From: Minisyncoccota bacterium
GTDB taxonomy: Bacteria > Patescibacteriota > Minisyncoccia > Phycocordibacterales > UBA5272
Length of the DNA stretch: 56,559 nucleotides
Assembly (NCBI GenBank): GCA_018062965.1
Contig: JAGORG010000006.1
Span: forward strand, 1-56,559
Direction: 5' to 3'
The position numbers and the translations under genes were made by a program. The notes below the pieces were generated by a model. The model did not search any database. It was not told the DNA's origin and saw only the letters and a list, made by a program, of their open reading frames with translations. Shown here piece after piece: positions 12,923 to 56,559 of this stretch. The first letter of the stretch is position 1, and the number at the start of each line of letters is the position of its first letter.

Positions 12923-12951
12923 TTGTCAAAACCTACAAAACCTGATAGAAT
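12923..12951 (+). promoter_or_regulatory. promoter TTGTCA-N17-(TGa)TAGAAT for rplK
   Basis: Hexamers with 17-nt spacing, 23 nt upstream of ATG 12975. Confidence 0.55.
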
Positions 12952-12974
12952 AAGCAAACTTTTTAAACCACATT

Positions 12975-13388: not shown

Positions 13389-13393
13389 TCATA

Positions 13394-13426
13394 AAAATAC
13401 CCGCACCTCGCGGGTATTTTTATTTT
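13394..13426 (+). terminator. rho-independent terminator after rplK
   Basis: aaaatacccgc-acct-cgcgggtatttttatttt. Confidence 0.8.
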
Positions 13427-13502
13427 ATGGTAGTGTACTTGTGTACGCTCACACGTAAGTGTGTTTATTAACAAAGTTCTTTGCCCAAGGAGGGCGATTA
13501 TC

Positions 13503-14120
13503 ATGAAAGAGTTCGAAAAAGGTATTCCCCTTCAATGGGTTCCGGGTACCAATCCAAGTGTCCTCAGCAAAATGTTTCCTCACAAACTTCGCTTAGACTA
13601 TGAAAGACCAACTCGGCTTGATGTTGAAGCGCAAAAAGTAATCATTATTTCGCGGAGAGCAACTTGCCTCTTCTATGAAGTTGGTTCCACCATCTTTCAT
13701 GTGAAGGACGGTAACTTTTTTCATCTATCCGATGGCTATAACGGCCCTGCGAAAGGTGATGTTGATCCCCGTTATGCAGGTTGTGCACGGGTAGTAAATG
13801 GTGAATTGAAACAAGGTCAGGGGTTCTGCCGTGGTTCTCACTCTGAACTCAACAGTATTGGTAACAGTCCTGTCGACACGAGTCTTTACGATGACGTGCG
13901 GATGATGGTGACTCTTCATCCGTGCCACACATGTGCCAAGCAGATTGTGAACCGTGGCATCGGCACTGTCTACTACATCTGGGAGTACGGTCGCGAAGAG
14001 TTTGTTACAGAATATCTTCGTTCTAAAGGTGTGAAGGTTGAGCGCTACACTTCACCACTTCTTGAAAAATGGATAGAACTCAATGGCTATCAAGCGGTTG
14101 GATCCTGTTGTGGGCACTAA
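13503..14120 (+). CDS. deoxycytidylate (dCMP) deaminase
   Basis: Zn motifs HSELNSI and PCHTCAKQI. ATG 13503 follows the SD AAGGAGGG (13487-13494). Confidence 0.8.
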   Translation: MKEFEKGIPLQWVPGTNPSVLSKMFPHKLRLDYERPTRLDVEAQKVIIISRRATCLFYEVGSTIFHVKDGNFFHLSDGYNGPAKGDVDPRYAGCARVVNGELKQGQGFCRGSHSELNSIGNSPVDTSLYDDVRMMVTLHPCHTCAKQIVNRGIGTVYYIWEYGREEFVTEYLRSKGVKVERYTSPLLEKWIELNGYQAVGSCCGH

Positions 14121-19800: not shown

Positions 19801-19978
19801 TAGCGTCGACGGGACTAATCACCCCTGAGCTTCGGGAAGAAAACCACATTGGCTAGTAGAACCCACAAATAAGGTCTGTGTATACAGATAAAACAAGGTG
19901 GTACCACGGGAATCAGCAGAAACTCGTCCTTGAGAAGCAATTCGTATGAATTGTTTTCCAAGGACGAGTTTTTATTTT
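19801..19978 (+). promoter_or_regulatory. T-box leader upstream of ileS
   Basis: T-box core aaGGTGGTACCaCGgg at 19895-19910. Terminator aactcgtccttg...caaggacgagtt plus a T-run. Candidate AUC(A) specifier at 19818-19821. Confidence 0.7.
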
Positions 19979-19996
19979 TATAACCAACATATATTC

Positions 19997-22900: not shown

Positions 22901-23449
22901 ATGCCGTTTATAGCAGAGCGTATATACACAATCGTTGCAGGTGAAAAAGAATCTGTGCATCTTGAGTCATGGCCTGGGGTGGGTGTAACCGATGGAGATG
23001 TGATAGCGCGCATGAAAACAGCGCGAGAGGTTGTATCAAGTGCTCTTATGAAAAGAACTGAGAGTAAAATCGCTGTTAGACAACCACTTGCAACACTTAC
23101 TATCACTGAAGATTTACCAGAAAGCTATCTCTCTATTATCCAAGAAGAAGTGAACGTAAAAGCTGTTACTGTTGGAGCTGAGCTATCGCTTGATACAACG
23201 ATAACAGAAGACCTTCGTATTGAAGGGGATATTCGAAACCTTATGCGCGCAGTACAAGACAAGAGAAAAGAGATGAATCTTTCCCCAAAAGATGGTATCT
23301 CTCTTACCCTTCAAACACCGTACGACCTTGGAGATGTTTCAGAACTTTCTCGTGTATGTAACATACAAACTATTTCACGCAGTGATACTTCACAAGAAAC
23401 AGAAGTTGCTTTGTCACAAGGCTCTGCCTCGTTTACTATTACGCTCTAA
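19997..23449 (+). CDS. ileS: isoleucine--tRNA ligase (type 2) with an inserted histidine-phosphatase domain
   Basis: GPPFATGMPHHGT and KISKS motifs plus a CP1 editing region. About 200 extra aa at roughly 21490-22110 carry the RHG and SHGG motifs. Confidence 0.9.
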   Translation: MAEQPKQKTINEKELETLASWQENEIFEKSVATPAGESPRGQFSFYDGPPFATGMPHHGTLMAGTVKDVIPRYQTMKGNSVRRVWGWDCHGLPIENLIEKKLGLQSKKDIEEYGIDKFNKDAFDSVLQYEAEWKKVIPRLGRFVDMEHPYKTMDATYTESIWWAWKQLMEKGLAYEGHKMMHICPRCETPLAQSEVGLEYHDVTDLSVTAEFELVDEPGTFVLAWTTTPWTLPGNTALAVNKTIAYVKVKSTFEDKTNYFILAKSKVEEYFKDSALIEVVEEFTGVALIGKSYKPVFSYFKNTEIENKENIWKIWHADFITEDAGTGIAHEAPAFGAEDMELAKANNIPVIKHVKMDGTFIDVVTDFAGMKVKVKDDTQSADIEIIKYLAHNGTLFEKHKIIHSYPLCWRCKTPLLNYATSSWFVDVPKMKEKLLSENQSIGWTPEHIRDGRFGKWLEGAREWAVSRTRYWGAPLPVWKNADGSELKVIGSLKELAHNRLPKNTYYVMRHGQAQSNVRGIIEVGDDITNTLTDEGKAHIEEQSQALREHHIDMIVASPVLRSMQTAEIVSRVLGGVPVVCDDRLRENNVGVFNGKTIDEYLASEGSTDFLRMKHRPEGGETHEEIQNRMMAVFMDCEKEHVGKTILFISHGGPLRMLIAGTALKTEEEILADEMEEHTQMYLKNGEFQKLDEVYLVPRDETGAVNLHRPYIDDVTFVDSKGETMKRIPDVFDCWFESGSMPFASLHYPFENKDIFDKNYPADFIAESMDQTRGWFYSLINLGVGLFDKAPYKHVICNGLINGADGQKISKSLGNYTDPLLLVEKFGADAFRYYMMSSPVIKGESVNFKDTELEDVYKKLIMRLENVLSLYEMNKPASVSRSAASEDVLDTWIISRVHEVVKATTDGYEQYKLDEAVRPVDQFVDDLSVWYVRRARSRLKGDEGEDVRNRTYETLSYVLHTFARTIAPVMPFIAERIYTIVAGEKESVHLESWPGVGVTDGDVIARMKTAREVVSSALMKRTESKIAVRQPLATLTITEDLPESYLSIIQEEVNVKAVTVGAELSLDTTITEDLRIEGDIRNLMRAVQDKRKEMNLSPKDGISLTLQTPYDLGDVSELSRVCNIQTISRSDTSQETEVALSQGSASFTITL

Positions 23450-38627: not shown

Positions 38628-38633
38628 CTTGTG

Positions 38634-39024
38634 TGGAGATGGGCGGAATTGAACCGCCGTGTATACCAGAACGATGTATGAATCTACAGTGTTTAGTGTG
38701 CTTCGTTGTAATCATCTAGCATAGAAAGCAAACGAAAACGATAGATGATGTGCATGAATTGTTTCGGTGAAAAGTTCATGCAAGCTTTTCACCTACATCT
38801 CCTGTTATTATGCCCTAGCTCTTTCCGGAGATGCGCAAGAGAAGGACACCTGGTCGGCGTTATTACGCGAACGCAGGAACGAGTCCGTTTGCCATATATG
38901 GTGAACGGATCGCCGTTGCAGATTTGTTTGCAACATGGGTGGCAGAATGGTTACGAGCAATTCTGCCGGTCTCGACACAGCACATACAATCATTGTCGAT
39001 ATATCAAAGCCAAAGATCATCCCC
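38634..39024 (-). ncRNA. ssrA: tmRNA (SsrA)
   Basis: 5' GGGGATG pairs with 3' CATCTCC, including the G3-U pair. T-arm GGCGGTTCAATTCCGCC. PK1 ggcagaat/attctgcc. Tag frame GCA AAC ... GCG TTC GCG TAA TAA. Immediately downstream of smpB. Confidence 0.9.
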
Positions 39025-41719: not shown

Positions 41720-41804
41720 TGTTCTAGATCCGTCACCATTGGCGGGTCCACTACTAATCCTACGCCTCAAATAAAATCTTGTAAAGATATCTTATAAACG
41801 TTTG

Positions 41805-41877
41805 TGCATCCACCTGGACTCGAACCAGGGACCAGTCGTGTATAAGACGACGGCTCTACCAACTGAGCTATGGATGC
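41805..41877 (-). tRNA. tRNA-Ile with anticodon UAU; CCA not encoded
   Basis: Manual cloverleaf: acceptor GCATCCA/TGGATGC, D arm GCTC/GAGC, anticodon stem GTCGT/ACGAC with loop CTTATAC, T arm CCTGG-TTCGAGT-CCAGG. Confidence 0.85.
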
Positions 41878-44091: not shown

Positions 44092-44124
44092 AAAAAGCTG
44101 GCCGCCGTAGGCGGCCAGCTTTTT
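44092..44124 (-). terminator. terminator between the small membrane-protein gene and recG
   Basis: aaaaagctggccgcc-(gtag/ctac)-ggcggccagcttttt. Confidence 0.8.
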
Positions 44125-44491
44125 ATCTAAACTGTGGTCGAGAATGATAAATGATGAGCGCAAGCGTAACAAGAAGAAGAACAAAGAGAAGCATGTTAGA
44201 TGCTGTGTAACTGTGAAGTGAGAAGTTGATGTAGAGCTCACTTGAGATGATAACCAAAGCTACAATGAGGGGTAATATTGGTCGAGGCCAAATGAGGATG
44301 AGTATACCCAAGATAACAAAGAATGCGTGCCAGAGTGTAAAAGCAACCGTTTGTGGAATGTATTCGTTGATACATGCAAACATAGCCATCTTTGTTTTCT
44401 GTGCACCTTCTAGCAAGCTACTTGCATGAGGGTAGATAAAATAAAACGCTACAGCTAAGCGAAGAAGGTAAGGCCAAATGTTAAACATCAT
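44123..44491 (-). CDS. small 4-TM membrane protein (possibly DoxX-like)
   Basis: 122-aa hydrophobic ORF. Family assignment is tentative. Confidence 0.55.
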   Translation of the reverse strand: MMFNIWPYLLRLAVAFYFIYPHASSLLEGAQKTKMAMFACINEYIPQTVAFTLWHAFFVILGILILIWPRPILPLIVALVIISSELYINFSLHSYTASNMLLFVLLLVTLALIIYHSRPQFR

Positions 44492-44541
44492 GTATGTAGT
44501 ATATCAGGATACATGTCACGACAACAAACTACCCAACCAAG

Positions 44542-45717
44542 CTAAATCTTTTGAAGATAGTTCTCAATACTATTAAAACACCACTCACGCACCTTTGGGG
44601 GCTCTAGCTCACATATAGATCTCATTCTTGGTAGTGAGTTTCGGGAGTTGTATATATGTAAAGAGAGTATGTCTCCAATACACGCTTTATGTCGAGGGTC
44701 GTTGTGTGTATATATTGTGCAGAGGCTAAGTATTTTTTCTGGCGCATACAGGTTGTTATTTGTGTCTAACGCAAGACTAAGGATCGCCGCAGCACTCTGG
44801 TAACACATTGTGTTTGCTTCTTGGTTTTTTGATTGACTACATTTCTGCAAAATCATATCTGGATTATAACCATGTACCGTATAGTAAATAGAAGCCATAT
44901 TTCTCCAGCAAGCTTTCTCTGCTGTCCCTGTGTAAGATAGACATGTCTTTTCAAGTTTGAGTGCGTATTCGTTGTTAATATTTAGACTAGATACTAGTCC
45001 ATGTTCAGACAGAGTTGTTTTATGGAAATCTTCCATAAAAACACCATCGTAACAGTTATAAAGCCATGTTTCTTGTAATTCTGAACATATTGACATTGAT
45101 GTAGAAAAGTCGCCGTAGTTAAATACGAGAATCATATGACCTAAGAGGTGCAAGTAAGGGCATGTCATATTTGATTGAGTTTCTTTACAGATATATTCAA
45201 TAAAGTTTTTGTCCATTTCTGTTTCAGGGTGGTCAGTTATATAAGCTTCTAGGAAACCATGAAGCATGCCCATTGAACAAAGGTTTGTATTTATTGTGTT
45301 GAGCACCTTCCAAAAGTCTTTTGAACTTCTTTCATAACTTGCCCTCCCTATGTAATGTCCAATACGATGACAGCTAATTAAAGATGGTTCTTTTTCTTGG
45401 GTTTTTGCAAGAATAGCAGAAGCGGTTACCATTCCATACTTCTTGGTACTCGCCATGAATTCATCCCTGTAACATTCTTCTTTTTTAGTTACCTCTACTT
45501 GCTTACATAAAAATATAATTTCTTCCGCAGCTTTTACTAGCTGAGTATCCTGTAAGTTAATTTTATTAGTAGGATTTAAAATGTTTAATTGTAATAACAA
45601 ACCAAAACTAATTAATATGACCGAAGTAAATGTTGTACCCACTAACAAAAAAAGCCTTTGTTTTTTTGAAAGATTTTTTAAGGTAGTCTTCATGGTATAA
45701 AGGTTAAGACGTAACAA
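44542..45717 (-). CDS. membrane-anchored Cys-rich helical-repeat protein, paralog B
   Basis: Shares CHxIGH, LHGFLEAY, C..LHLLGH, CYDGVFMEDF and CWRNMA motifs in the same order as 45759-47015. Start is TTG 45717 or ATG 45693. Confidence 0.7.
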   Translation of the reverse strand: MLRLNLYTMKTTLKNLSKKQRLFLLVGTTFTSVILISFGLLLQLNILNPTNKINLQDTQLVKAAEEIIFLCKQVEVTKKEECYRDEFMASTKKYGMVTASAILAKTQEKEPSLISCHRIGHYIGRASYERSSKDFWKVLNTINTNLCSMGMLHGFLEAYITDHPETEMDKNFIEYICKETQSNMTCPYLHLLGHMILVFNYGDFSTSMSICSELQETWLYNCYDGVFMEDFHKTTLSEHGLVSSLNINNEYALKLEKTCLSYTGTAEKACWRNMASIYYTVHGYNPDMILQKCSQSKNQEANTMCYQSAAAILSLALDTNNNLYAPEKILSLCTIYTHNDPRHKACIGDILSLHIYNSRNSLPRMRSICELEPPKVREWCFNSIENYLQKI

Positions 45718-45758
45718 CAGCTAAACATGAAGCAGGGTCAAAATGATTGCTTACAAGT

Positions 45759-47015
45759 TTATTGCAAACAAACCCCTCTAAAAACTTCTGGCAAGTAGCT
45801 GCAGTACTGTGCTCTGTCTTTTTTATTAGTAACCACTGCGCGTAGTCGGTCGTTAACCAGGTTAAAGCATGTATTTGCGTAACTTGAAGGAACGCTCGAA
45901 CATAAGGTAACACCTCGAGGTGTAAACTTTGGAGAGTTATAAATGAGAGAAGAAATAAGAACCTGAGTACATGAATCGTACAGCTTCATATCTTGTAGGT
46001 AATAGGCACACAATGAGGTTAGTTTTGAGGGTGTGTCAAAGCCTGGATATACAGCCATCGCTATAACACCCTTTGAATAACAGTCTCTATCAAACTCACT
46101 TGTCTGTGCTTTTGAACAGTTCTTAAAAATAATATCAGGTACGTATCCATACGCATGTGCGTACATTTCTGCCATCTCTGTCCAGCATGCTTTTGCCATA
46201 ACACCTTCCGTTTTTAAACAAAACCCTTCAATTTTATTAAAGTAGTCTTTGTCGAGCTTCGGGAGGGGGAACATTCCATGTTCTGCAAGGATTAGTTTTT
46301 GGTGATCTTCCATAAAAATACCATCGTAACAATTAAAATGCCACTCCTGGCGTAGGTCTTTACACAACAGAAGAGCTTCTTCTAGATTACCAAATGTATT
46401 TATCAAAAAAACGTGTCCAACAAAGTGAACACATGTTCTTTTTCTGTACTCATTGTTCCCTTGACCGCAAATTTTGTTCGTAAAATCGCCGTCAATTGGT
46501 ATCTCTGGGTTAGCTGTTGCATAAGCTTCTAGCACACCATGCAAAAAACCACTCCCGCAAGCATTTACGTTGACTGACTCAATCAACTTGTAGAAGTCAC
46601 CAGGGTTTCTTCTGTATGCTTCACTTGCCATGTTGTGTGCAATCACGTGGCAGCTTTTTGCAAAGTCGTCTGTATCTTGTAGCGCTAAAAGAATAGCTTC
46701 ACCATTTGCGAGGCCGTACATCCTTACTGCTTTTCTCAGTTCAAATTTATAGCAGTCTTGCTTCTTGTTACCGTCTGGAGTGGAACACTCTTCTTTGATT
46801 GAAGTTGCTAATTCTGCAGCTTTTGTTTTTGTTATGCTAACTTTGTCATTTTTATAAATAATTTTAGTAAAGTTCGTACCTACATAGAGCGCTACGCTAA
46901 CACTAAAGAACACAAAAAGAACTGTGTATATAATCTTTGCTTTCTTCGAAGAGAGGTTCTTTTTTTGTACAACTAGCTTTAGCTTTGCAATCGCGCTCCG
47001 TATAGTTTGTTTCAT
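45759..47015 (-). CDS. membrane-anchored Cys-rich helical-repeat protein, paralog A
   Basis: 418 aa. N-terminal TM, then CHVIAH, FLHGVLEAY, CVHFVGH, CYDGIFMEDH and CWTEMAE motifs. Confidence 0.75.
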   Translation of the reverse strand: MKQTIRSAIAKLKLVVQKKNLSSKKAKIIYTVLFVFFSVSVALYVGTNFTKIIYKNDKVSITKTKAAELATSIKEECSTPDGNKKQDCYKFELRKAVRMYGLANGEAILLALQDTDDFAKSCHVIAHNMASEAYRRNPGDFYKLIESVNVNACGSGFLHGVLEAYATANPEIPIDGDFTNKICGQGNNEYRKRTCVHFVGHVFLINTFGNLEEALLLCKDLRQEWHFNCYDGIFMEDHQKLILAEHGMFPLPKLDKDYFNKIEGFCLKTEGVMAKACWTEMAEMYAHAYGYVPDIIFKNCSKAQTSEFDRDCYSKGVIAMAVYPGFDTPSKLTSLCAYYLQDMKLYDSCTQVLISSLIYNSPKFTPRGVTLCSSVPSSYANTCFNLVNDRLRAVVTNKKDRAQYCSYLPEVFRGVCLQ

Positions 47016-47030
47016 ATTCTGCGGTTGCTG

Positions 47031-48095
47031 CTACTGCTCTAATTCGTCAGTCACGAGTACATTTACTTGTTGAGATTGTGAAAGGTTCCCGCAGCGAAGA
47101 TTAAAGGTCGTAGAGTACTCAACAGGGACTGTTTTCTTTCCTTTTGCGTGCGTTGTACTATACGCAGACTGTGTGAGTGCAGCTATCATTGTACGAGTTG
47201 TACCATTGCGTAGCCAGTAAGGGTCATTCACATCAGTGGATCCATTTGTAAGTGTGTTGTTTAGTGTTGCTACAGCTGCGTCACGCGGCGCTTTACATGT
47301 AGTTACGTCACACAAAGCAGGGTAGAGGGCTATAGCACGTAGTCTGCAGGTGCTTGTTGCAACTTCTAAATCCCACGTAAGAGCAGTAGACCCTCCGCGT
47401 TTAATAGACCGCGGACTTGCGGTGAGCGTTCCAAGTTGGGTTGCGAATATGTCACTATCCACTACAAGGCTTGCTGGACTGCTATTTGTTGAGTTGTAAC
47501 GACAGTACACAGTGTACACATCTTCACCGCCTAAACCTCCTGTTGTAACAGGGGAGCCAGAATATGTGCCAGAATACACGATAGTGTTGTTACTTCTGCG
47601 TACCTGATAGTTAGTAGAGTTTGTACATGTGATGGTCACAGTTACATCGTTTACATTTGAACCTTGAAGAACTGCGCTTCCAACATATGGAGTCGGGTCG
47701 TAGGTTTCGTATGACTCATATGAGTTATATGTGTTATATGTATTGTACGTATTATATGCTTCGTACGTATTATAGGTGTTATATGTATTGTACGTATTAT
47801 AGGTGTTATATGTATTGTACGTATTATAGGTGTTATATGTATTGTATTCCTCATACGTCTCGTATGTTTCAACTGCTGGGATGCTTTCTCCAGATGCAGG
47901 CACCACTGAACCAGCCTTTTTGCCCAATACAGAATGTTCAGCAATTGAAAGTTCAGAAGTGTAAGGAGTGGCACCTCTTGTTATTAAGAAGATTCCAATT
48001 AACAAGAGTAGTGCAGTGGAAAAGGTTATTGTACTTGGTCTAAAAAACTTTTTTTTACCAAGAAGATGTTTTATTTTTGTATGAATATGTTTCAT
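47031..48095 (-). CDS. membrane-anchored protein with (Y-N-T)n tandem repeat and beta-rich C-terminal region
   Basis: 354 aa. TM near the N-terminus, then ETYETYEEYNTYNTYNT...SYESYETYD tract. Confidence 0.7.
   Translation of the reverse strand: MKHIHTKIKHLLGKKKFFRPSTITFSTALLLLIGIFLITRGATPYTSELSIAEHSVLGKKAGSVVPASGESIPAVETYETYEEYNTYNTYNTYNTYNTYNTYNTYNTYNTYEAYNTYNTYNTYNSYESYETYDPTPYVGSAVLQGSNVNDVTVTITCTNSTNYQVRRSNNTIVYSGTYSGSPVTTGGLGGEDVYTVYCRYNSTNSSPASLVVDSDIFATQLGTLTASPRSIKRGGSTALTWDLEVATSTCRLRAIALYPALCDVTTCKAPRDAAVATLNNTLTNGSTDVNDPYWLRNGTTRTMIAALTQSAYSTTHAKGKKTVPVEYSTTFNLRCGNLSQSQQVNVLVTDELEQ
47699..47872. repeat. 9-bp periodic coding tandem repeat containing three 27-bp units
   Basis: gtattataggtgttatatgtattgtac at 47767-47793 and 47794-47820, and nearly identical at 47821-47847. 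Degenerate 9-mers flank these. Confidence 0.9.
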
Positions 48096-48166
48096 AGATG
48101 TATCTACCTACCATTATTTAAGCAGTGTATCATGCGTAAAACTAAGATGGTTACCTTGTGCACACT

Positions 48167-48883
48167 TTAGTTAGCCATTTTTTCTTCAACTAGCCTAAGA
48201 TTACTCTCGATAGATTTCTTTGCCGCCCTCAACCCTTGCCCATACACCCTCGGATCATTCCCAGGGTACACCTTACCCCACTCTTTTTCTGTTAGTTTAT
48301 CGGCGGCTACTTTTGCGTAATCAAATGCTACCTTTGCTTCCTTGTACTTTTTCTTATTCATAAGCATTACACCATAGGTGTTTTGTACCCAAGCATTATC
48401 GGTTAGGTGAGTGACAGGGGTTATTGTCTCTAGTGCTGCATCTATATCTCCTATTCTAAACTCAAGCCACGCTTTATCGTTCCTTGCCGCCCAGCTTTCT
48501 GGTTTCCATTCGATGAATTTAGCGAATGCTTCTATGGCTTTTTCTTCTTTGTTCATATACCCGTAAGTAAGTCCAAGCATGTACTGGGCCCTTATATTTT
48601 CAGGGTAGAGGGCCACCTCTTTATTTATTTCTTCTATGGCCCCCTGAAGTTGACCTTTGATAAAATATGTTCTCCCAAGCTGGTAGTGCGCAAACTTCAA
48701 AGCCTTACCAGTCGGAGGATATGAAGCTTGTATAAAGAAAAAATTTGCTAGGTTTAGATTGTAAAGATAAGGAATTTTACCAAAAAATAAGTTACCAGTT
48801 AAAAGATTTAAGAAAGAATAAAATATAATAAAAGAAACAAATGAAGTTGAAACAAAAAACATTTTTAAGTGTGTCATTGACAT
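48167..48883 (-). CDS. TPR-repeat protein with N-terminal TM
   Basis: 238 aa with several 34-aa TPR-like units (YQLGRTYFIKGQLQGAIEE..., YMLGLTYGYMNKEEKAIEAF...). Confidence 0.7.
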   Translation of the reverse strand: MSMTHLKMFFVSTSFVSFIIFYSFLNLLTGNLFFGKIPYLYNLNLANFFFIQASYPPTGKALKFAHYQLGRTYFIKGQLQGAIEEINKEVALYPENIRAQYMLGLTYGYMNKEEKAIEAFAKFIEWKPESWAARNDKAWLEFRIGDIDAALETITPVTHLTDNAWVQNTYGVMLMNKKKYKEAKVAFDYAKVAADKLTEKEWGKVYPGNDPRVYGQGLRAAKKSIESNLRLVEEKMAN

Positions 48884-48885
48884 AA

Positions 48886-50349
48886 TTATTTACTAACGAA
48901 TAATTTAAGTACACGTAGTATTGTGGATATCCATAAAATCCAGTATAAGATATAAAAAATAGTTATGTGACGAATTATGTTTTTCTGAAGCCAACTTGTT
49001 TCGATGGGTTGACTTGTTGAAAGAGAAGAGGGGTAGAGGTATTGTCCAGCTCTAGTATAAGAGCTGTCAACACCATCAGAAGCAAGGTATATATTTTTAT
49101 AAGGTAGTCCTGTGGCAGTTGCTTCACTTTCCAGTTTTATCCAGGAATTATGAACAAAAGGTTTGTATACAAGTTTACATAAATCGGGCTCGTCAATGAT
49201 TTTTTGAAAACTGTTACCATTTATTGAATGTTCAAACTCCCAGGCGTATTTTTCATCACCCTTTAAACAAAACTGCTTCTGGTACATTTTTAAGTATACG
49301 TAAGGGTCACATCTATTTCGGGCATCATAGCTAAAGCGTGTGTGGATAATTTTGTTGAAAGTAACAGTGCTAATACATTGGTGATTTGCTTCAAACATAA
49401 ATAAACCGTAGTTATTTCCCTCTAGTGTTATTTTTTGATCACCAGGTATTTTTATTGCCACAAACTGTAATATAAATAGAATTATAATTATTAAAAAAAA
49501 GCTGTAGCTGCGCTCTTTTTTTAAAGATGAAATAATATTTTTTTCCTTGTCGATACCTACTCCAAATATTATCAATAGTGAAAATAATGAAGTGAACGGG
49601 TAACGAAAACCAACTAATATTGCAGAATAAATATGAAAAAATATGAAAAAATAGATTGCCAAAGTAGATATTTTTGAGTTCTTGCTTAATAAAAACCAAC
49701 CCCCCAACATTTGCATTAGGATGACAATATTTGTTGCCGCGGGAATTAAGATGAACGGGATAAGAGGGAGTCCGTAATATAGCGATGAAAAATAGGTGCC
49801 AGCAATCCAGCCTTCATGTATTTTAATAGTGGAAGCAAGAAAATAAAGGATAACAAAAGTTACTTTAATCAACTCTCTTCGGGAGGGGTATATTAAAAAG
49901 ATTAAGATTAAGACTAAGTCGTAGTAGTCATAGTTGCCTAATCCGTAGTTTAGTAAACAGATTAAGATTTTTACAGTAAATAAAATCCATAAAATTATAT
50001 GGGCGTAGTAGTACTTTTTTTTGTAAAGAAAAATAACCCCCATGGTTATTAGGCTAAAAATGATAGTAAATAACAAAGACTCTTTATAGCTATAAGGTAA
50101 GGGTGTAATATTAAAAAAAGTTTTACAGCTTTGAAAATGAGGGAAACAAGGTAAAGAAGAAATTTTGCTTAGCAGACCTTCACCTGCGTAGCTGTTAAAA
50201 GAGATTAAACATATAAAAAAAGCCCAGTATGCAAATATAGGTGCAAATTTATTTTCTAGGTATGAATTTTGGATTAGGGTGGGCTTTGCTTCTAAATTAA
50301 AAAAAGTTTTTAATTTAGAAGCAAATAGTATAGGGTTCTCTTTTTTCAC
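48886..50349 (-). CDS. polytopic membrane protein, HTTM (vitamin-K-dependent-carboxylase-like) family candidate
   Basis: 487 aa. ILYFLASTIKIHEGWIAGTYF and GNNYGLFMFEAN resemble HTTM-family motifs as I remember them. GTG start lies 10 nt after TATACT. Confidence 0.6.
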   Translation of the reverse strand: MKKENPILFASKLKTFFNLEAKPTLIQNSYLENKFAPIFAYWAFFICLISFNSYAGEGLLSKISSLPCFPHFQSCKTFFNITPLPYSYKESLLFTIIFSLITMGVIFLYKKKYYYAHIILWILFTVKILICLLNYGLGNYDYYDLVLILIFLIYPSRRELIKVTFVILYFLASTIKIHEGWIAGTYFSSLYYGLPLIPFILIPAATNIVILMQMLGGWFLLSKNSKISTLAIYFFIFFHIYSAILVGFRYPFTSLFSLLIIFGVGIDKEKNIISSLKKERSYSFFLIIIILFILQFVAIKIPGDQKITLEGNNYGLFMFEANHQCISTVTFNKIIHTRFSYDARNRCDPYVYLKMYQKQFCLKGDEKYAWEFEHSINGNSFQKIIDEPDLCKLVYKPFVHNSWIKLESEATATGLPYKNIYLASDGVDSSYTRAGQYLYPSSLSTSQPIETSWLQKNIIRHITIFYILYWILWISTILRVLKLFVSK

Positions 50350-50468
50350 TTTAGAGTAGTATAACTCACTCAGTAGTCCCTTATCTTCAATACAGGGACA
50401 AATTCAGTTATTCACTTTATTCTTGAAAGCTAAATTGCTCAAATGGTATTTCGAGGTATAATGATTTT

Positions 50469-50666
50469 ATGAATATAAATTTAAAGAAATTTAAAAAAGG
50501 ACCATTGGTAGTATTGGGAATTTTTTTAACTATTCTCGTATCTAAATTTGCTGATTTTAAAGAGCTCCCTATTTCAGACGGTGATGTAATTGATTTTGTG
50601 TATGCAGAGCATCCAGATGTTCCAGAACCACCAGCTGATGGTTGTGGAGATGATGGCGGAATATAA
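50469..50666 (+). CDS. small protein: N-terminal signal/anchor and acidic Pro/Gly-rich C-terminus ending DGCGDDGGI (candidate substrate peptide)
   Basis: 65-aa ORF. TATAAT lies 7 nt upstream. First gene of the YcaO operon. Confidence 0.5.
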   Translation: MNINLKKFKKGPLVVLGIFLTILVSKFADFKELPISDGDVIDFVYAEHPDVPEPPADGCGDDGGI

Positions 50667-50677
50667 ATTATAATTCA

Positions 50678-51835
50678 ATGAAAAAACTTTATCTTTCTCT
50701 AATTTTTTTCCTGATGCTTTTCACGGTGGTTTTTGTTATAAAAACTTATTTTAAAAATTCTGCGATTGAAAGAGGGTTTTCCTCTTATTATTCAAATTTA
50801 ATTTGGGGTGTTTTTTCCGAGGTTGGCAATAGCTCTGGCACAGAAGCCTCGATAGAGTTGGTTGAAAAATTAGATAAGATTACAAAAGATGAAAACTTGA
50901 ATGAGTACGATCGGCAAGTTTTAAATCTTTTATATGTATCCCGAAAAATTACCACAGAACCCGACTGGTCTTCACCAAAAAGAAAATTACTTCAAGATGA
51001 AGCTTTCCAAGTCTATAAAAATGTAATTGATAGTGTAGATGTGGAGTTAAGTAGCACAAACAAAAGATTGTTTGGCGCAGCGGTCGCCAATTTAATTGGG
51101 GCATACCAAGGTGCTTGCTTCGACCCAGATCTCTTAAAGAATAATGTCCCGGAAAAATATAAGGTTAAATATAATGAATATCTAACTAAGAATTATACAA
51201 ACCAACAAGCAAACCAAGCAATCATACTTGACCTTTTAACAGACGCAAAAAGATTTTTGCCAACAGATAAAGCTATTGTTTCACGACAGCAGATACAAAT
51301 TTCACAGTATCTATTAAATTACGGAGGAACATTATCAGAAGAAGAAAGACAAAAATTAGTAGACATCTTAGAGTTAAATATTTCTATTTCTGGAACATTA
51401 GAAGACATAACAACCTCCAAAGCAACCACTCAAACATTCTTCTTGGCCAGTAACGCATTAGCCTTTGATGTGGCAAATAGAGCTTTTTCTGCTGGGAGCA
51501 CAACACTAAATAATTTAATAAATTCAAATTATGATACAGCTCTGTTAGCAATAAATCCCAACCAAGATCCTGGCCTCGGTTCAGTTTTTGAGAAGTGGAC
51601 AAGGGTTAATTATGCGACTTCACTTTACAATCGAAACCAGCGAGATAGTAACAAAATAGATGAGTTGTTATCTCCGATATATAGCGAGAGGGGTTCTAAT
51701 GAATCTAATATGGCTCTGTCTTACTGCTTAGGTAAAACTTCTGAAGATGCTTGGGATTATACGCGAATGAGCGTGAGTAAGATTGGTGAAAAGAATAGTA
51801 AGCTGGCTGACTATCTTAATCGTATTGCTAAGTAG
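50678..51835 (+). CDS. hypothetical membrane-anchored, predominantly helical protein
   Basis: 385-aa ORF starting 11 nt after the peptide gene. No recognisable motif. Confidence 0.7.
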   Translation: MKKLYLSLIFFLMLFTVVFVIKTYFKNSAIERGFSSYYSNLIWGVFSEVGNSSGTEASIELVEKLDKITKDENLNEYDRQVLNLLYVSRKITTEPDWSSPKRKLLQDEAFQVYKNVIDSVDVELSSTNKRLFGAAVANLIGAYQGACFDPDLLKNNVPEKYKVKYNEYLTKNYTNQQANQAIILDLLTDAKRFLPTDKAIVSRQQIQISQYLLNYGGTLSEEERQKLVDILELNISISGTLEDITTSKATTQTFFLASNALAFDVANRAFSAGSTTLNNLINSNYDTALLAINPNQDPGLGSVFEKWTRVNYATSLYNRNQRDSNKIDELLSPIYSERGSNESNMALSYCLGKTSEDAWDYTRMSVSKIGEKNSKLADYLNRIAK

Positions 51836-51867
51836 CTTACGTTTTAAAATGAGATTGATTTTTTAGT

Positions 51868-53508
51868 ATGTCTGATATTTTATTTAATCTCATAAGAGAC
51901 CATGTATATAATGAGGACCTTATACAAAAGGTGTCGCTTAACTCTTCAGATAAAAAAATAAGGTGGATTTTTAATTTTAAAAATCAGTCCCTTTCAAAAA
52001 TATTTTTAGATGAATTTTCTAAGGTTTTCTGGGGGGTATTCCCAGAGCTTGAGAATGTGCAAATTGGGGGGATGGAGGCTGGGGCTATACCTTTGGTTAC
52101 GGCTATAGCATTAAACACTTCTCAAAATATTAGCTTGAGAAGTTTTTATATACGAAAGTCTAGAAAAAAAAATGATCTTGCAAATCTTGTCGAAGGAGAG
52201 CTTCTGTCCGACGTGCCCATAATCTTGGTGGATGACATTCTTAATAAAGGTGACACGATGGAGCGTCAAGTAAAAATTTTAGAGAATTATGGACATAAAG
52301 TATCTGCAATTTTTGTTTGTTTAAGGTATAGAGATATAAAGGAGTATGAAGGATTGCTTAGTAGGGGCATAAAAATCTATTCAATCTTTGATTTGAACAG
52401 TTTTGAGAGGGTTTTGCCAGTAAAAAATATAACCCCCATTACTCCTGCGGTCTTACTAAGAAGATATGCGCAAGTATATAAGTTAAAATTAACAGAAAAA
52501 CCAAATTTGTACCTGGTCTTGCCAAAATCAGCACCACTTTTAAAAAAAGACTTACTTTACTACGCTGCCGATGACGGAATGTTCTTTTGTGTTAAGTCTG
52601 TAGATGGAGGTGTTGTTTGGTCTCGTAAAATCTTTTTTGGCTCTCGAGGTAAACGTATTTTTTCATCTCCTGAAATTTATGATGACAAGATAATATTTGG
52701 GGCGTACGATGGTAATTTGTACTGTATTAATCGTTTTACAGGTAAAACCATTTGGGTGTTTATGGATGCAGATTGGATTGGGTCATCTCCTTGTATAAAT
52801 TACACACAAGGAATTGTGTACGTCGGGCTAGAGTTTGGTTTATTTAAAAAACAAGGAGGTTTAGTTGCTATAGATATTAATACAGGGAAAGAATTATGGA
52901 AAAATTATTCTATATCAGAGTTTGTTCACGCTAGTCCAGGTTATAACACAAAAAATAATTTAGTGATATGCGGGAGCAATAACGGGTATGTCTATTCTTT
53001 TAATGCAAAGAACGGGCATATTGTGTGGGAATTCAAAACAGAAGGCGAAATAAAATATGGGGTATCTTTTACTAAAGATTTAACCATTGTTGCGTCCATG
53101 GATGGGTATGTTTACCTTCTGTACTCTGAGTCCGGGGTTCTTTATCATAAGTTTTCAGCTGAAGCTGGATTTTACTCTACGCCTTTAGTGTATGATAATA
53201 ATTTCCTGATAGCAGGCTCTTTGGATAAGAAAATTTATTGTTTTAATATACTTAATAAAGCAGTTGAATGGACGTACGAGACTAATGGAAGAATATTATC
53301 AAGTCCAACAGCTTATGAAGGAAGTGTTTACTTGGGGAGTAACGATGGTGTTTTGTACGAGCTGGATATATACACAGGTAAATTATATAGCCGTACCCAA
53401 TTCGGAGAGCGCCTAGTTAACAAAATTCAAATCGAAAGAGAAAACGGTAAAAGGGTTTTATATGTACCGACTCACGCCTGCGAACTTTATAAAATGATGG
53501 AATTATAG
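51868..53508 (+). CDS. fusion protein: type I phosphoribosyltransferase domain plus PQQ-like beta-propeller
   Basis: PRPP loop VPIILVDDILNKGDT in the N-terminal ~190 aa. The C-terminal ~330 aa carry repeated DG.(V/L)Y..(D/N)..(T/N)G...W blades. Confidence 0.75.
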   Translation: MSDILFNLIRDHVYNEDLIQKVSLNSSDKKIRWIFNFKNQSLSKIFLDEFSKVFWGVFPELENVQIGGMEAGAIPLVTAIALNTSQNISLRSFYIRKSRKKNDLANLVEGELLSDVPIILVDDILNKGDTMERQVKILENYGHKVSAIFVCLRYRDIKEYEGLLSRGIKIYSIFDLNSFERVLPVKNITPITPAVLLRRYAQVYKLKLTEKPNLYLVLPKSAPLLKKDLLYYAADDGMFFCVKSVDGGVVWSRKIFFGSRGKRIFSSPEIYDDKIIFGAYDGNLYCINRFTGKTIWVFMDADWIGSSPCINYTQGIVYVGLEFGLFKKQGGLVAIDINTGKELWKNYSISEFVHASPGYNTKNNLVICGSNNGYVYSFNAKNGHIVWEFKTEGEIKYGVSFTKDLTIVASMDGYVYLLYSESGVLYHKFSAEAGFYSTPLVYDNNFLIAGSLDKKIYCFNILNKAVEWTYETNGRILSSPTAYEGSVYLGSNDGVLYELDIYTGKLYSRTQFGERLVNKIQIERENGKRVLYVPTHACELYKMMEL

Positions 53509-53527
53509 TTTCCGCCTTCGATATTAC

Positions 53528-54766
53528 ATGGCAATTAAAAAAATAATTAATTTTCTTTTTAATAATTATAATAACAAAAGCATCTTTAAAGATAGTAAGC
53601 TAAGTGCTTTAATGTATGATTTATATCACATTAAAATCTTTGCGGGTGAAGAAAAGAATTCTTTTTTTGGGATTGTTAAATTTGGAATTTCTGCAGACTC
53701 AATAAATGTTTACTCAAGTTCAGTAAAGATAAACATTATAAAAAATGATAATTATAAAATGAAAGGGCTGGGGGAGTTCTTGGAAAGATTTTCCGCGAAG
53801 CTTCCACTTGACCAAACGTTAAGCCAAAGCAAAGTGTTCTCGTGGAGTTTACTTGGGCTCAAATTTAAATTCTCTAACAAAGAAGAATTATACTATGGAA
53901 TCAAAAGCCCAAATTCAGTAAGGGGGCACCAAAAAACAACTAACGGCTATGCTGGGCACTTTTTTTTAAAAAACGCCATATTAAATGCCTGGTTAGAATT
54001 AGTGGAGAGAGACTCATTTATGGTTTATTGGTTAAATAGTATTGCCCCTAAACAAATTTCACTTAAAGATCCTGTATTTGAATCAAATCAAAGATTAAAA
54101 GAGATTAAAAGTTACTTAAGTCACTATAAATTAAATTTAATTATTTTGGATATAACGTCAGATCTAGCCATCCCCTCAATTGCCTGCGTCCTGTACTCTC
54201 ATGAGGTTGGTAATACATATTTTGGGGTTGGTGCTTGCTCTGGCTTTAATTTTGAAGATATATTCTTATCTGCTCTTTCAGAGTCTCTGAGTGTCGCTGC
54301 GTTTACTCACAACAAAGAAAGTTCTTTGTTAATTAATACTGCTGATCCTTCAGCCAATAAAGATTATATTGATAAAAATGTAAGGTTGCTAATTTATTTA
54401 AATAAAGAAAATTTTAGTAAAATTAGTTTTTTTGTATCAAATCGGGGTACCACCAGTATAGAAAATTTAACGAGCAACCTTCCTAGGCTAGACACACTTC
54501 CTCAAAAAATGAACTATTTAAAAAATATATTTAGAAAAAGACTAAAAAGTAACAAAGATTACAATGTTTATTTTTATCGTATAAAAAATAAATTACTTAA
54601 AAAATTGGGTTATTTTGTCGTGAAGGTTACCTGCAGTGCTCTTTACCCGTTTTACTTGCGAGAAAGGTATATAAATTTAGAACACTCACGTCTTAAAGAA
54701 TTTACTAGGAACATGGGGTTGACTGATGAAGCAAAAGATAATTTCTGCCCACACCCCTTCCCATAA
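53528..54766 (+). CDS. YcaO-domain protein (TOMM cyclodehydratase-like)
   Basis: TTNGYAGHFFLKNAILNAWLELVERDSF matches the YcaO ATP/Mg region. C-terminus ends PHPFP (PxPxP motif). Confidence 0.8.
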   Translation: MAIKKIINFLFNNYNNKSIFKDSKLSALMYDLYHIKIFAGEEKNSFFGIVKFGISADSINVYSSSVKINIIKNDNYKMKGLGEFLERFSAKLPLDQTLSQSKVFSWSLLGLKFKFSNKEELYYGIKSPNSVRGHQKTTNGYAGHFFLKNAILNAWLELVERDSFMVYWLNSIAPKQISLKDPVFESNQRLKEIKSYLSHYKLNLIILDITSDLAIPSIACVLYSHEVGNTYFGVGACSGFNFEDIFLSALSESLSVAAFTHNKESSLLINTADPSANKDYIDKNVRLLIYLNKENFSKISFFVSNRGTTSIENLTSNLPRLDTLPQKMNYLKNIFRKRLKSNKDYNVYFYRIKNKLLKKLGYFVVKVTCSALYPFYLRERYINLEHSRLKEFTRNMGLTDEAKDNFCPHPFP

Positions 54767-54773
54767 TAGGGTA

Positions 54774-54801
54774 TTGACTTATTTTTTTATTGTGATACAA
54801 T
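54774..54801 (+). promoter_or_regulatory. sigma70-type promoter TTGACT-N16-(TGa)TACAAT
   Basis: Upstream of the GC-rich lipoprotein gene, giving a leader of about 70 nt that ends in the SD GGAGA. Confidence 0.5.
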
Positions 54802-54874
54802 AAATTCACCGAAAGTAGCAGTATGGATTGCACTTAAGGAAGACGTTCTGTTTATAAACCTGACTGGAGAAATC

Positions 54875-55174
54875 ATGAAAAAATCCTTTGTTTCCATGCC
54901 TGTTGCCGCCCTCATCATGGCACTCTGCGGCTGCGCCATCGCACAGCCCGCAGAGCCCGCCGCAACGGCCAGCACGGCAACCTCCGCTCCCGCTCCGAAG
55001 AAATGGACCTGCGAAGCCCCGAACCTGATTTCGGCTACCTACGGTGGCGGCGACTGGGCTTCGGTGCACCTGTCTCCGTACAGCTCCGGTGGTAGCTACC
55101 GTGTCACCAAGGAAGGTGCCACGGCTACTGGTGTGACCGCAAACGGCACCAAGTTCATCTGCACCCAGAAATAG
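54875..55174 (+). CDS. small putative lipoprotein in a sharply GC-rich segment
   Basis: MKKSFVSMPVAALIMALCGC is a signal plus lipobox-like LCGC. GC3-rich codons. SD GGAGA lies 5 nt upstream. Confidence 0.65.
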   Translation: MKKSFVSMPVAALIMALCGCAIAQPAEPAATASTATSAPAPKKWTCEAPNLISATYGGGDWASVHLSPYSSGGSYRVTKEGATATGVTANGTKFICTQK

Positions 55175-55212
55175 GCAAGCAGTCCAATGGCTTCACCGCC
55201 AAACAAAAGAGT

Positions 55213-55245
55213 CCCCTCTGTTGAAAAACAGGGGGGCTTTTCTTT
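55213..55245 (+). terminator. rho-independent terminator
   Basis: cccctctgtt-gaaaa-acaggggggcttttcttt. Confidence 0.75.
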
Positions 55246-55314
55246 ATTGGGGTTAATTGAGTGTAAGGTAGGTTTTATTGTACAGCTTATTATCTGTGGT
55301 AGAATAGCTCCATT

Positions 55315-56559
55315 ATGAAAGCAAAGATTAAAGCGTTTTGGATGATTGTTGTGGTTCTACTTATTGGCGGATGGCTTTGGAAAGGGGACACTCTATTTAA
55401 TGGAGAGTTCAAAAAAGACTTTGTTTTAGGGCTTGATTTGGCGGGAGGAGCAGCTTTAACGTATACAATTGAGACTAGCTCACTTCCAAAAGAAGTAAAC
55501 GTTAACGAGAGCGTAGAAGCTCTTAGAGATGTTGTTGAGCGGCGAGTGAACCTTTTTGGAGTTCGTGAACCAACAGTAACTACTCAGTTTAGCCGCCTTC
55601 AGCAGGAGTGGAGATTGGTTGTTGAGCTTCCTGGCGTTGCTAACGTTGATGAGGCTGCCAAGCTGATCGGCGAAACTCCGGTGCTTGAATTTAGAACCAG
55701 TAAACCTGACGCCAAAGAACTTACCGCTTCTTCAACTCTCTTGGATCTTGTCAATAATTTCGAAAGAACAGAACTTTCAGGCAGCTATCTAAAGAGGGCA
55801 GCTCTTGTGTTTGACCCAACTACTAATCGACCAATGGTAGAGCTTACCTTTGATGAGGTAGGCGCTCAGCTTTTTGCTACCATTACTAAAGAAAATATTG
55901 GCAAGCAAGTTGCGATATTCTTAGATGGTGTGCCAATCTCGTCTCCAACTGTTAACGAAGAAATCACAGCTGGGAAGGCAGTTATTTCAGGAGACTTTAC
56001 TATTGAGGAAGCGCGTATTTTGGTGGGGCGACTTAATTCAGGGGCTCTTCCAGTGCCAATTACTCTTGTCGGGAAGACAATTGTTGAGCCATCACTCGGT
56101 GAAAAGGCTGTTGGAGCAGGAGCTAAAGCGGCAGTCGCAGGTTTCGGACTCATCGCCCTTTTCATGATTCTCTGGTACAGACTTCCAGGAGTTATGGCAT
56201 CACTTGCACTTGTTTCATATGTGGTGATTATGCTCACACTCTTTAAACTAATCCCAGTTACGCTCACATCCGCGGGTATTGCAGGTCTTATTATCTCGCT
56301 TGGTCTTGCAGTGGATGCGAACGTTCTTACATTTGAAAGAATGAAAGAAGAACTCGCTCGTGGGAAAGGTTTGCGAGATGCTATGGAAACAGGGTTTGCA
56401 CGAGCGTGGACATCAATTCGCGATTCACATATTGCAGCTATTATCGTATCGGTAATTCTTTTCTGGTTCGGAACCTCTGTCGTGAAAGGGTTTGCCTTCA
56501 CGTTTTTCTTAGGTGCAGTTATATCACTCTTTTCAGCTCAGGTAGTAACGCGACTCTTT
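55315..56559 (+). CDS. secD: protein translocase subunit SecD (5' part; runs off the window)
   Basis: Open frame of 415 codons, absent from the ORF track because it has no stop. LGLDLAGG, VERRVNLFGVREP, VVELPGV and the TM bundle LAVDANVLTFERMKEE. TGGTAGAAT lies 10 nt upstream. Confidence 0.85.
   Translation, partial: MKAKIKAFWMIVVVLLIGGWLWKGDTLFNGEFKKDFVLGLDLAGGAALTYTIETSSLPKEVNVNESVEALRDVVERRVNLFGVREPTVTTQFSRLQQEWRLVVELPGVANVDEAAKLIGETPVLEFRTSKPDAKELTASSTLLDLVNNFERTELSGSYLKRAALVFDPTTNRPMVELTFDEVGAQLFATITKENIGKQVAIFLDGVPISSPTVNEEITAGKAVISGDFTIEEARILVGRLNSGALPVPITLVGKTIVEPSLGEKAVGAGAKAAVAGFGLIALFMILWYRLPGVMASLALVSYVVIMLTLFKLIPVTLTSAGIAGLIISLGLAVDANVLTFERMKEELARGKGLRDAMETGFARAWTSIRDSHIAAIIVSVILFWFGTSVVKGFAFTFFLGAVISLFSAQVVTRLF

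Follow-up and report, generated by a model that had tools for sequence, protein, structure and literature searches.

We analyzed a 56,559-nt stretch of DNA from a Minisyncoccota bacterium (Patescibacteria; contig JAGORG010000006.1 of assembly GCA_018062965.1, positions 1 to 56,559; hereafter the window), in which four consecutive genes encode a 65-aa peptide (pep65), a 385-aa protein (p385), a phosphoribosyltransferase (PRTase) fused to a beta-propeller (PRTprop) and a YcaO enzyme. We propose, with a probability of roughly 60%, that the whole is best explained as a chromosomal gene cluster of the type that makes peptides synthesized on ribosomes and modified after translation (RiPPs), working by the mechanism set out below. 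The cluster would belong to a family from Patescibacteria, or the candidate phyla radiation (CPR), that resembles the clusters for thiazole/oxazole-modified microcins (TOMMs) and linear peptides that contain azol(in)es (LAPs), and would be a reduced version of the subtype marked by PRTprop. That the genes belong to this CPR YcaO cluster family and are functionally linked is highly probable. An earlier interpretation of the DNA letters by themselves (the sequence-only reading) had suspected a gene set outside any described RiPP or YcaO class; instead, the genes fall within a large TOMM/LAP-like family specific to Patescibacteria.

The four open reading frames (ORFs; Table 1) were found, all on the forward strand, exactly where the sequence-only reading had placed them, with gaps of 11, 32 and 19 nt, and the operon is AT-rich as it had described (33.7% GC vs. 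41.3% for positions 1 to 45758). Every ORF from 44123 to 55174 was scanned with Pfam and NCBIfam, and no E1-like/ThiF, TfuA, SagB, protease/peptidase or ABC exporter domain was detected among them. A tblastn search of the whole 56.5-kb window, with the nitroreductases of three related loci as queries, yielded no nitroreductase. These negatives bear out the earlier claim that the usual partner genes are missing beside YcaO. The operon recurs, identical or nearly so, on at least nine further contigs from separate sequencing runs, and those that are long enough continue with the same downstream genes, a 99-aa ORF followed by secD and secF. Therefore, the missing partners are not an assembly artefact. 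The content of the window is chromosomal (RecG, FtsH, several aminoacyl-tRNA synthetases, tmRNA and secD), and its secD shows 74% DNA identity to a metagenome-assembled genome (MAG) labelled as Saccharibacteria. A defence system was considered and rejected, as PADLOC yielded just a marginal generic PRTase match (E 6.6e-4).

PRTprop is wholly covered by two domains, an orotate phosphoribosyltransferase (OPRT)-like type I PRTase (residues ~1-185) and an 8-bladed BamB/PQQ-like propeller (~200-546). Family searches placed the Pribosyltran/pyrE-like similarity at residues 29-177 and the PQQ-like/ACSF4 propeller repeats at 223-541. The score against PF00156 was borderline (26.2 bits against a cutoff of 26.3), the score against the pyrE equivalog model TIGR00336 was 53.8 bits (cutoff 106.8), and the PRTase domain matched the OPRT structures 2wns and 5hkf in the PDB (E ~3e-5). 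Foldseek results for the AlphaFold2 model (predicted local distance difference test score [pLDDT] 93.3, predicted template modeling score 0.87) were dominated by propeller matches, with BamB reaching a target-normalised template modeling score of ~0.8. Neither a transmembrane segment nor a signal peptide was predicted for PRTprop, and the protein is predicted to be cytoplasmic. In an alignment of 66 homologues (41-59% identity, with the window PRTprop as reference row and basis of the identities), R96, K97, K100, E109, D122 and D123 are invariant, and S98, R99, K101, N126 and G128 are conserved in at least 90% of the sequences. Alignment with human and M. tuberculosis OPRT showed that the conserved residues fall on the OPRT flexible loop (RKSxK...L[IV]EG) and on the loop that binds phosphoribosyl pyrophosphate (PRPP) (VDD..N.G.T), which reads VDDILNKGDT in the window.

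PRTprop has 1075 homologues at E<=1e-10; those listed at the top are almost without exception full-length fusions of ~550 aa, from CPR bacteria wherever a source is named. We sampled eight homologues solely on how long their contigs were, and seven of them lay within 8 kb of both a nitroreductase and a YcaO gene (L095, L096, L097, L099, L100, L101 and L102; L numbers are our designations for the loci and contigs compared). The usual order in these loci is PRTprop, nitroreductase, YcaO, precursor and a ~375-aa protein, often as overlapping or abutting genes, with a tetratricopeptide repeat (TPR) gene running divergently. The exception, L098, has a homologue of the window's membrane protein mem487 (see below), a rhodanese and a thioredoxin near PRTprop instead. 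PRTprop was found in none of the non-CPR YcaO loci L040-L094. The fusion, already singled out by the sequence-only reading, is thus a real and specific neighbor of YcaO and, judging by these gene neighborhoods, marks one subtype of CPR YcaO clusters as its signature accessory. A housekeeping pyrE as its identity was rejected, because the pyrE score is below the cutoff and because both the fusion architecture and the gene context speak against it. As a side observation, genes resembling Asp/Asn beta-hydroxylases (PF05118) adjoin the PRTprop gene in L003 (12980-13606, -) and L099 (7307-7993, +), and a PF05118 homologue also stands at the end of the L001 cluster (9118-9687), which is of note beside Asp-rich cores.

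The last gene of the operon encodes a YcaO protein, as first recognized from its ELVERD region and PHPFP end: it matches PF02624 with 80.3 bits (E 2e-22, cutoff 25.7), and the motifs TTNGYAGHF...LELVERDSF and the C-terminal CPHPFP are intact. PxP-type C-termini are characteristic of azoline-forming YcaOs (PMC7136475). The best NCBIfam model was TIGR03604 (SagD) with 116.8 bits, whereas the model for McrA thioamidation reached 41.1 bits, well below the SagD score. Thirty alignment columns reach 85% conservation or more across 31 other CPR YcaOs; the window protein keeps 26 of them, with no charged one lost (the retained residues include K79, E83, E86, R87, E157, R161, D162, E252, R286, E379, R388 and H409). 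The E-x-x-E-R and E-x-x-x-R-D residues (E83, E86, R87, E157, R161 and D162) are kept in 30-31 of the 31 other proteins, and the same holds for E252, R286, E379 and R388. We detected neither a transmembrane segment nor an extra domain. A structural model built from a 7-sequence alignment was of low confidence (pLDDT 62, with residues 1-85 below 50), so that the N-terminal region is not interpretable; Foldseek matched this model exclusively to YcaO structures (LynD, MusD, TruD, MJ1094 and McbD), which confirms the fold alone. A word-indexed search of 5.8 billion proteins found six relatives only, with 28-40% identity, one of which JGI annotates as an ‘S12 methylthiotransferase accessory factor’. 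From its motifs and profile scores, we regard the protein as a putative SagD-like, ATP-dependent amide-activating enzyme in minimal form.

The first gene of the operon is predicted to encode the precursor peptide of this cluster family. pep65 starts with a basic N-terminus (4 Lys in the first 11 residues), continues with a transmembrane-like helix at residues 12-30 (by hydropathy) and a VYAE junction at 44-47, and ends in the acidic core HPDVPEPPADGCGDDGGI. This core contains the motif ADGCGDDGG, a single Cys (Cys59), four Pro, no Ser or Thr and no Lys or Arg. Small ORFs of 60-125 aa with the same architecture occur in the related CPR YcaO loci, where the candidate precursors follow a common grammar: after a basic N-terminus come a single hydrophobic helix, a spacer that closes with x(Y/H)AD(A/V/L/T), and a tail in which Gly, Asp, Ser, Cys and Thr abound. 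Among the 20 candidates tabulated (more turned up afterwards), 17 have the x[YH]AD[AVLT] junction and 19 a core free of Lys and Arg, the exception, from L021, having two such residues. Even in CPR loci that are very divergent and differ in gene order, YcaO comes with a small ORF bearing the (Y/H)AD junction. The cores of the relatives hold 1-8 Cys in addition to Ser and Thr, and the DGCG motif of pep65 is shared with the GDGCGGCSG cores of the PRTprop-type clusters L095, L096, L100 and L101. No second precursor-like small ORF was found within 45700-55400. An ORF at 46924-47073 (+), antisense to the junction of the neighboring genes p418 and p354, was rejected for this role, since it has no family leader and overlaps with two genes. 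This 49-aa ORF, with a GTG start and a Cys/Ser/Thr-rich tail (CGCCYCSNSSVTSTFTC), is probably spurious.

For p385, which has a transmembrane-like segment at residues 3-21, neither Pfam nor NCBIfam gave a match, and a word-index search returned only the protein itself. A full HMMER scan of 1.84 billion representatives gave two weak full-length matches only, P0130 (E 8.5e-6) and P0131 (E 2.7e-4). These two bridge p385 to the hel400 proteins of L016, L001 and L005, which are encoded directly after the precursor; P0131 matches the hel400 protein of L016 with an E-value of 1e-38 and p385 with 2e-9. Alignment of p385 by hhalign gave a probability of 76% against the hel400 alignment and of 70% against that of a second family, F3, both collinear over ~260 columns. 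Together, the bridging matches and the hhalign results suggest that p385 is a fast-evolving member of the protein family that follows the precursor, and its domain is probably extracytoplasmic.

The loci closest to the window, collected by a pattern scan of GTDB species genomes, all came from MAGs of Patescibacteria/CPR (Saccharibacteria, Parcubacteria, Paceibacterota, Woesebacteria and others; one is labelled Rickettsiales), showing that the gene context recurs in other genomes. ORFs were called and clustered in 27 sources (26 CPR loci and the window), with YcaO ORFs clustered from 26 of the 27. A nitroreductase is present in 18 of 26 CPR YcaO loci, the window counted among the 26, and that of L100 is of the SagB type (TIGR03605, 110.9 bits, cutoff 78.4). 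A membrane-anchored TPR protein was seen in 14 of the 26 and later also in L095-L097, L100 and L101. Directly after the small ORF stands a gene for a membrane-anchored protein of ~330-520 aa, belonging to F3, F12 (papain-like plus TPR) or hel400, and adjoining YcaO is one of three accessories: PRTprop, an AMMECR1-containing protein of ~610 aa (F4) or a transmembrane protein of ~310 aa (tm310). These three largely exclude one another. On L097, an AMMECR1-type cluster adjoins a PRTprop-type one (2764-6992 and 8001-13660), which suggests that the two proteins are alternative accessory modules.

Additional genes were observed in parts of this family. Rhodanese genes accompany CPR YcaO clusters that have no nitroreductase, as triplets in L022 (4264-5567) and L030 (12448-13964), and further ones are located in L028 (2391-2885), L097 (17132-17485) and L098 (12242-12700). 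They hint that the rhodanese-bearing clusters are sulfur-transfer subtypes, perhaps forming thioamides. In L027, which likewise has no nitroreductase, the core is free of Cys. The closest relatives of the window YcaO have two more conserved genes, a DUF6817/metallo-beta-lactamase-fold and a PAP2/vanadium-haloperoxidase-like one, after the nitroreductase (L001 6526-9003, L005 7649-10215, L016 11828-14408 and L102 6598-7590); both are absent from the window.

Compared with these relatives, the window copy is a reduced and probably mosaic derivative of the PRTprop subtype, and not its archetype. Among about 15 PRTprop loci with a YcaO context it is the only one without a nitroreductase; 13 other PRTprop-type loci have one, and in the window none lies between PRTprop and YcaO, the gene order being precursor, p385, PRTprop and YcaO. 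The window PRTprop is closest (54-59% identity) to those of L095, L096, L100, L101 and L102, loci whose YcaOs are just 26-29% identical to the window YcaO. YcaO and p385 have their nearest counterparts in L001, L005 and L016, loci of the hel400/tm310 type, and in L003 a close YcaO (38%) stands with a PRTprop that is only 44% identical. These different closest loci suggest a mosaic origin. Additionally, a 7.5-kb block (48243-55781) is 100% identical to positions 2364-9902 of L007; it reaches from the TPR238 gene (see below), most of which it includes, through mem487, the operon and the 99-aa ORF into secD (first ~470 bp). Beyond the block, 118 codons of secD differ in L007, 99 of them synonymously, and L007's left flank differs in gene content, with an identity of only ~72-74%. 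Either the block was recently transferred or recombined, or a metagenome contig is chimeric.

What the data above show is gene content, homology, and conserved context and catalytic-type residues; from this we infer a mechanism comprising substrate residue, chemistry, a partner role of PRTprop, topology and export route. pep65 would be made with an N-terminal signal-anchor leader. YcaO, SagD-like and predicted like PRTprop to be cytoplasmic with a cytoplasmic cofactor (ATP and PRPP, respectively), would then activate one of the backbone amides of the acidic core at the expense of ATP. The likeliest target would be the Gly58-Cys59 amide of DGCG, where Cys59 would be cyclodehydrated onto the Gly58 carbonyl to give one thiazoline; we put the chance of a thiazoline at Cys59 at somewhat short of even. 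SagB/McbC-type dehydrogenases, which use flavin mononucleotide (FMN), are needed for azoles and optional for azolines. Since the locus has no SagB dehydrogenase, the product would stay an unoxidised azoline. PRTprop would fill the slot of the E1-like McbB/SagC, the order in the relatives being PRTprop, dehydrogenase and YcaO. BamB-like propellers are a protein- or peptide-binding fold, and PRTprop would probably dock the peptide or YcaO through this domain, its OPRT-like site binding PRPP or a nucleotide and perhaps adding a second modification. This partnership with YcaO is a tentative suggestion, which we think more likely wrong than right. Finally, the modified peptide would be translocated by means of its leader and then handled outside the cell by the anchored proteins p385, TPR238 and p354 and the polytopic mem487.

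Several points weigh against this proposal. The pep65 core, with one Cys and neither Ser nor Thr, is poor in residues for azol(in)e formation, and given this core and the missing dehydrogenase, which is also absent from the 5 kb further downstream on contig L007, azol(in)e formation is only a default guess. The TIGR03604 score of YcaO is below the trusted cutoff of 219.25, and the best PDB sequence match of the YcaO family profile is the thioamide-forming MJ1094, with MusD second. YcaO is also without an N-terminal extension of ~100 residues, the TIGR03604 alignment beginning near residue 27 vs. 123 in L100, and the missing region might be a peptide-binding element in the relatives. Regarding PRTprop, its phylogeny and that of YcaO are discordant, and to our knowledge a PRPP-dependent peptide modification has no precedent. 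Further, the operon is 100% identical to that of strain L007, so that it holds no variation from which a ratio of nonsynonymous to synonymous changes (dN/dS) could signal purifying selection.

Because Cys, Ser and Thr are scarce, the L027 core has no Cys and L022 and L030 carry triple rhodanese genes suggestive of sulfur transfer, we also considered that YcaO performs a different chemistry on the Gly/Asp/Pro-rich core, namely backbone thioamidation, amidine formation or an ATP-dependent cleavage of peptide bonds like that of MusD, with the PRTase supplying or attaching a phosphoribosyl-derived group. The ranking of MJ1094 and MusD among the PDB matches and the invariance of the PRPP-binding residues are in line with such a chemistry. 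We nevertheless judge it unlikely: the Pfam and NCBIfam scans of the window yielded neither TfuA nor a rhodanese nor any other gene for a sulfur donor, the Cys of DGCG is the one core feature conserved with azole-type relatives, and the SagD model outscores the thioamidation model by 116.8 to 41.1 bits.

The reduced state of the locus could also mean decay, in which a canonical PRTprop-SagB-YcaO cluster lost its dehydrogenase, was partly overwritten and no longer runs a working pathway. The absence of a nitroreductase from this PRTprop+YcaO locus alone, the truncated YcaO N-terminus, the core depleted in modifiable residues, the mosaic-looking origin and the low GC content all fit this scenario, which we consider very unlikely, since all ORFs are intact and tightly spaced, YcaO has kept its charged family-conserved positions and PRTprop its invariant residues, and the block is identical in populations with diverged flanks. 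Equally poor odds are given to the idea that no RiPP is secreted at all, the pep65-type ORFs being small membrane proteins or non-substrates and YcaO and PRTprop modifying another cellular target or serving the nucleotide metabolism of these auxotrophic bacteria. YcaO proteins do have roles outside RiPPs, acting on McrA or as an accessory of RimO, and this idea could draw on the resemblance of the leaders to ordinary signal anchors, the orotate-PRTase-type loops kept in the OPRT-like domain and the JGI label on one YcaO relative. It has to be set against the small ORF with a (Y/H)AD junction and a Lys/Arg-free Gly/Cys/Ser/Asp tail that goes with YcaO in divergent CPR loci, against the co-occurring SagB-type peptide dehydrogenases and against PRTprop itself, which is always fused to a propeller and far under the pyrE cutoff. 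We retain the RiPP-type cluster of the PRTprop subtype as the preferred explanation.

The functional unit is larger than the four genes to which the sequence-only reading had confined it. Upstream and in divergent orientation lie genes for membrane proteins (Table 1), and the recurrence of TPR238, mem487 and p354 with the family in other loci extends the unit to at least 47031-54766.

Table 1. Genes and other features of the window (+, forward strand; -, reverse strand)
Feature	Position	Strand	Length	Description
aminoacyl-tRNA synthetase	19946-23449	+	1167 aa	class I (tRNA-synt_1 + Anticodon_1)
tmRNA	38631-39024	-		full-length, 87 bits
tRNA-Ile	41804-41877	-		anticodon TAT
p418	45759-47015	-		membrane-anchored Cys/His-rich protein; no family matches
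p354	47031-48095	-		membrane-anchored, transmembrane-like segment 21-39; VVPASGES motif; C-terminal domain
TPR238	48167-48883	-		membrane-anchored TPR protein; TPR Pfam matches, transmembrane-like segment 10-28
mem487	48886-50349	-		polytopic, at least 7 transmembrane-like segments, divergent from operon; no family matches
pep65	50469-50666	+	65 aa	predicted precursor peptide
p385	50678-51835	+	385 aa	N-terminally membrane-anchored, remote hel400 member
PRTprop (PRTase-propeller)	51868-53508	+	546 aa	OPRT-like PRTase + beta-propeller
YcaO	53528-54766	+	412 aa	putatively SagD-like, PF02624
99-aa ORF	54875-55174	+	99 aa	lipoprotein-like, MKKS...ALCGC lipobox-like start

Homologues of TPR238 (29-52% identity) stand beside YcaO in about 20 loci (L001, L003, L005, L016, L019, L021, L023, L028, L029, L033, L034, L037, L065, L095-L097, L100 and L101); the L016 homologue is 52% identical and those of L095-L097, L100 and L101 are 45-49% identical. 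mem487 homologues adjoin PRTprop in L098 (39% over 451 aa) and L102 (43% over 370 aa), and another in L016 (29%) lies 6.5 kb from YcaO; a role of mem487 in export is a possibility. The N-terminal 70-80 residues of p354 (35-57% identity) are found next to the TPR gene in 8 loci (L016, L023, L029, L065, L095, L096, L097 and L100), and p354 probably belongs to the periphery of the cluster as a companion of the TPR gene. Tandem repeats of the tripeptides NTY/ETY/ESY (YNTYNTYNTYNTY; about 47650-47900) separate the membrane anchor of p354 from the C-terminal domain, and its VVPASGES motif corresponds to PASCES in the homologues, with Gly here in place of Cys. pep65, p385, TPR238 and p354 each have one N-terminal transmembrane-like segment after a basic stretch, resembling signal anchors with the N-terminus inside. 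The membership of p418 is weakly indicated by a single BLASTP link to a 411-aa protein beside YcaO in L019 (E 4e-5, 25% over 124 aa, with a common Cys/His pattern), and the gene lies outside the block common to the window and L007.

Downstream of the operon, the 99-aa ORF has 61% GC amid surroundings of 34-41%, a sigma70-like promoter-like site of its own (54774-54801) and a strong terminator (55213-55236). It resembles a foreign insertion between YcaO and secD and is present on all contigs that reach that point. An assembly chimera as the cause of the GC jump after 54800 was rejected, as the junction and the 99-aa ORF occur on 7 other contigs. Elsewhere in the window, where Pfam coverage was partial for ORFs upstream of 39493, the class I aminoacyl-tRNA synthetase has a His_Phos_1 domain inserted at residues 523-678, and tRNA-Ile is located just downstream of RecG, near the tmRNA.

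The association between PRTprop and YcaO is strong and widespread, and it bears on how YcaOs recognize substrates without E1-like partners. Across an entire bacterial radiation, SagB/SagD-type clusters apparently work without such a partner and use lineage-specific accessories, a PRTase-propeller or an AMMECR1 fusion, in its place. Should PRTprop turn out to be a recognition or activation partner, the rules of YcaO biochemistry would be broader than now known, and a PRPP-derived group attached by it would be a new peptide modification. A more far-reaching idea, which we consider doubtful, is that PRTprop is a third kind of YcaO partner beside the E1/ThiF-like and TfuA proteins, confined to Patescibacteria, where hundreds to thousands of clusters would carry it. 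Its propeller would recruit signal-anchored acidic precursors, and PRPP would serve to install a phosphoribosyl-type modification or to gate YcaO. The products would then be a new RiPP class on, or released from, the surface of the episymbiotic cell, with the dehydrogenase-free, single-Cys variant of the window as its minimal form. Given the tiny genomes of Patescibacteria and their life attached to host cells, a conserved and apparently exchangeable cluster for a modified peptide, secreted or at the surface, is a good candidate for a factor in host interaction or competition. The four-gene version in the window is a compact test case, small enough for heterologous expression.

LAP clusters in CPR genomes were superficially noted in 2020, and partner proteins such as PRTprop are apparently undescribed. 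Sharrar et al. (mBio 2020, PMC7298704) reported 110 such clusters in 93 CPR genomes, consisting of YcaO, nitroreductase, peptidase and an 84-aa precursor, with the nitroreductase next to YcaO in 89. The window shares with them the phylum-level lineage and the idea of a YcaO with a precursor of ~84 aa, whereas it lacks both the nitroreductase and the peptidase; that report describes no PRTase-propeller, AMMECR1, TPR or hel400/F3 protein and no leader grammar. Our literature search on YcaO together with phosphoribosyltransferase, propeller, AMMECR1 or Patescibacteria, with incomplete coverage, found nothing on these accessories.

Taken by its domains, PRTprop resembles two known proteins and departs from both. 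Its N-terminal domain aligns with OPRT (PyrE) across the flexible and PRPP loops, whereas the score beneath the equivalog cutoff, the propeller fusion and the YcaO-cluster context set it apart from PyrE. Its C-terminal domain superposes on BamB, which is periplasmic, whereas PRTprop has no signal peptide.

At the level of the cluster, the window resembles the LAP/TOMM systems, such as McbABCD of microcin B17 and SagBCD of streptolysin S, in that its YcaO is putatively SagD-like and ends in PxPxP and its small predicted precursor has a Gly-rich, Cys-containing core. The likeness is closer for its relatives, which carry SagB-type FMN dehydrogenases in an accessory-dehydrogenase-YcaO order mirroring mcbB-mcbC-mcbD, and whose precursors are Gly/Cys/Ser-rich like that of microcin B17. 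According to reviews (PMC7136475), azoline formation by a YcaO normally requires a partner of the E1-like or ThiF-like kind, and TfuA is a marker of thioamide clusters. Unlike LAP/TOMM systems, the window has no E1-like (McbB/SagC) or ThiF-like partner, no detectable RiPP recognition element and no dehydrogenase, ABC exporter, immunity gene or leader peptidase; its leader is a signal-anchor transmembrane helix, its core is strongly acidic with a single Cys, and it has the OPRT-like/propeller fusion instead. In TfuA-YcaO thioamidation systems TfuA adjoins YcaO, whereas no TfuA is among the neighbors in the window. The standalone YcaOs (bottromycin BotC/BotCD, streptamidine and MJ1094, which thioamidates a Gly of McrA) likewise have no E1-like, ThiF-like or TfuA protein nearby, and the window YcaO is, like them, of minimal length. 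In contrast to them, it is nearer to the SagD type than to the methanogen marker YcaOs, is accompanied by another type of precursor and has a dedicated, conserved accessory encoded next door.

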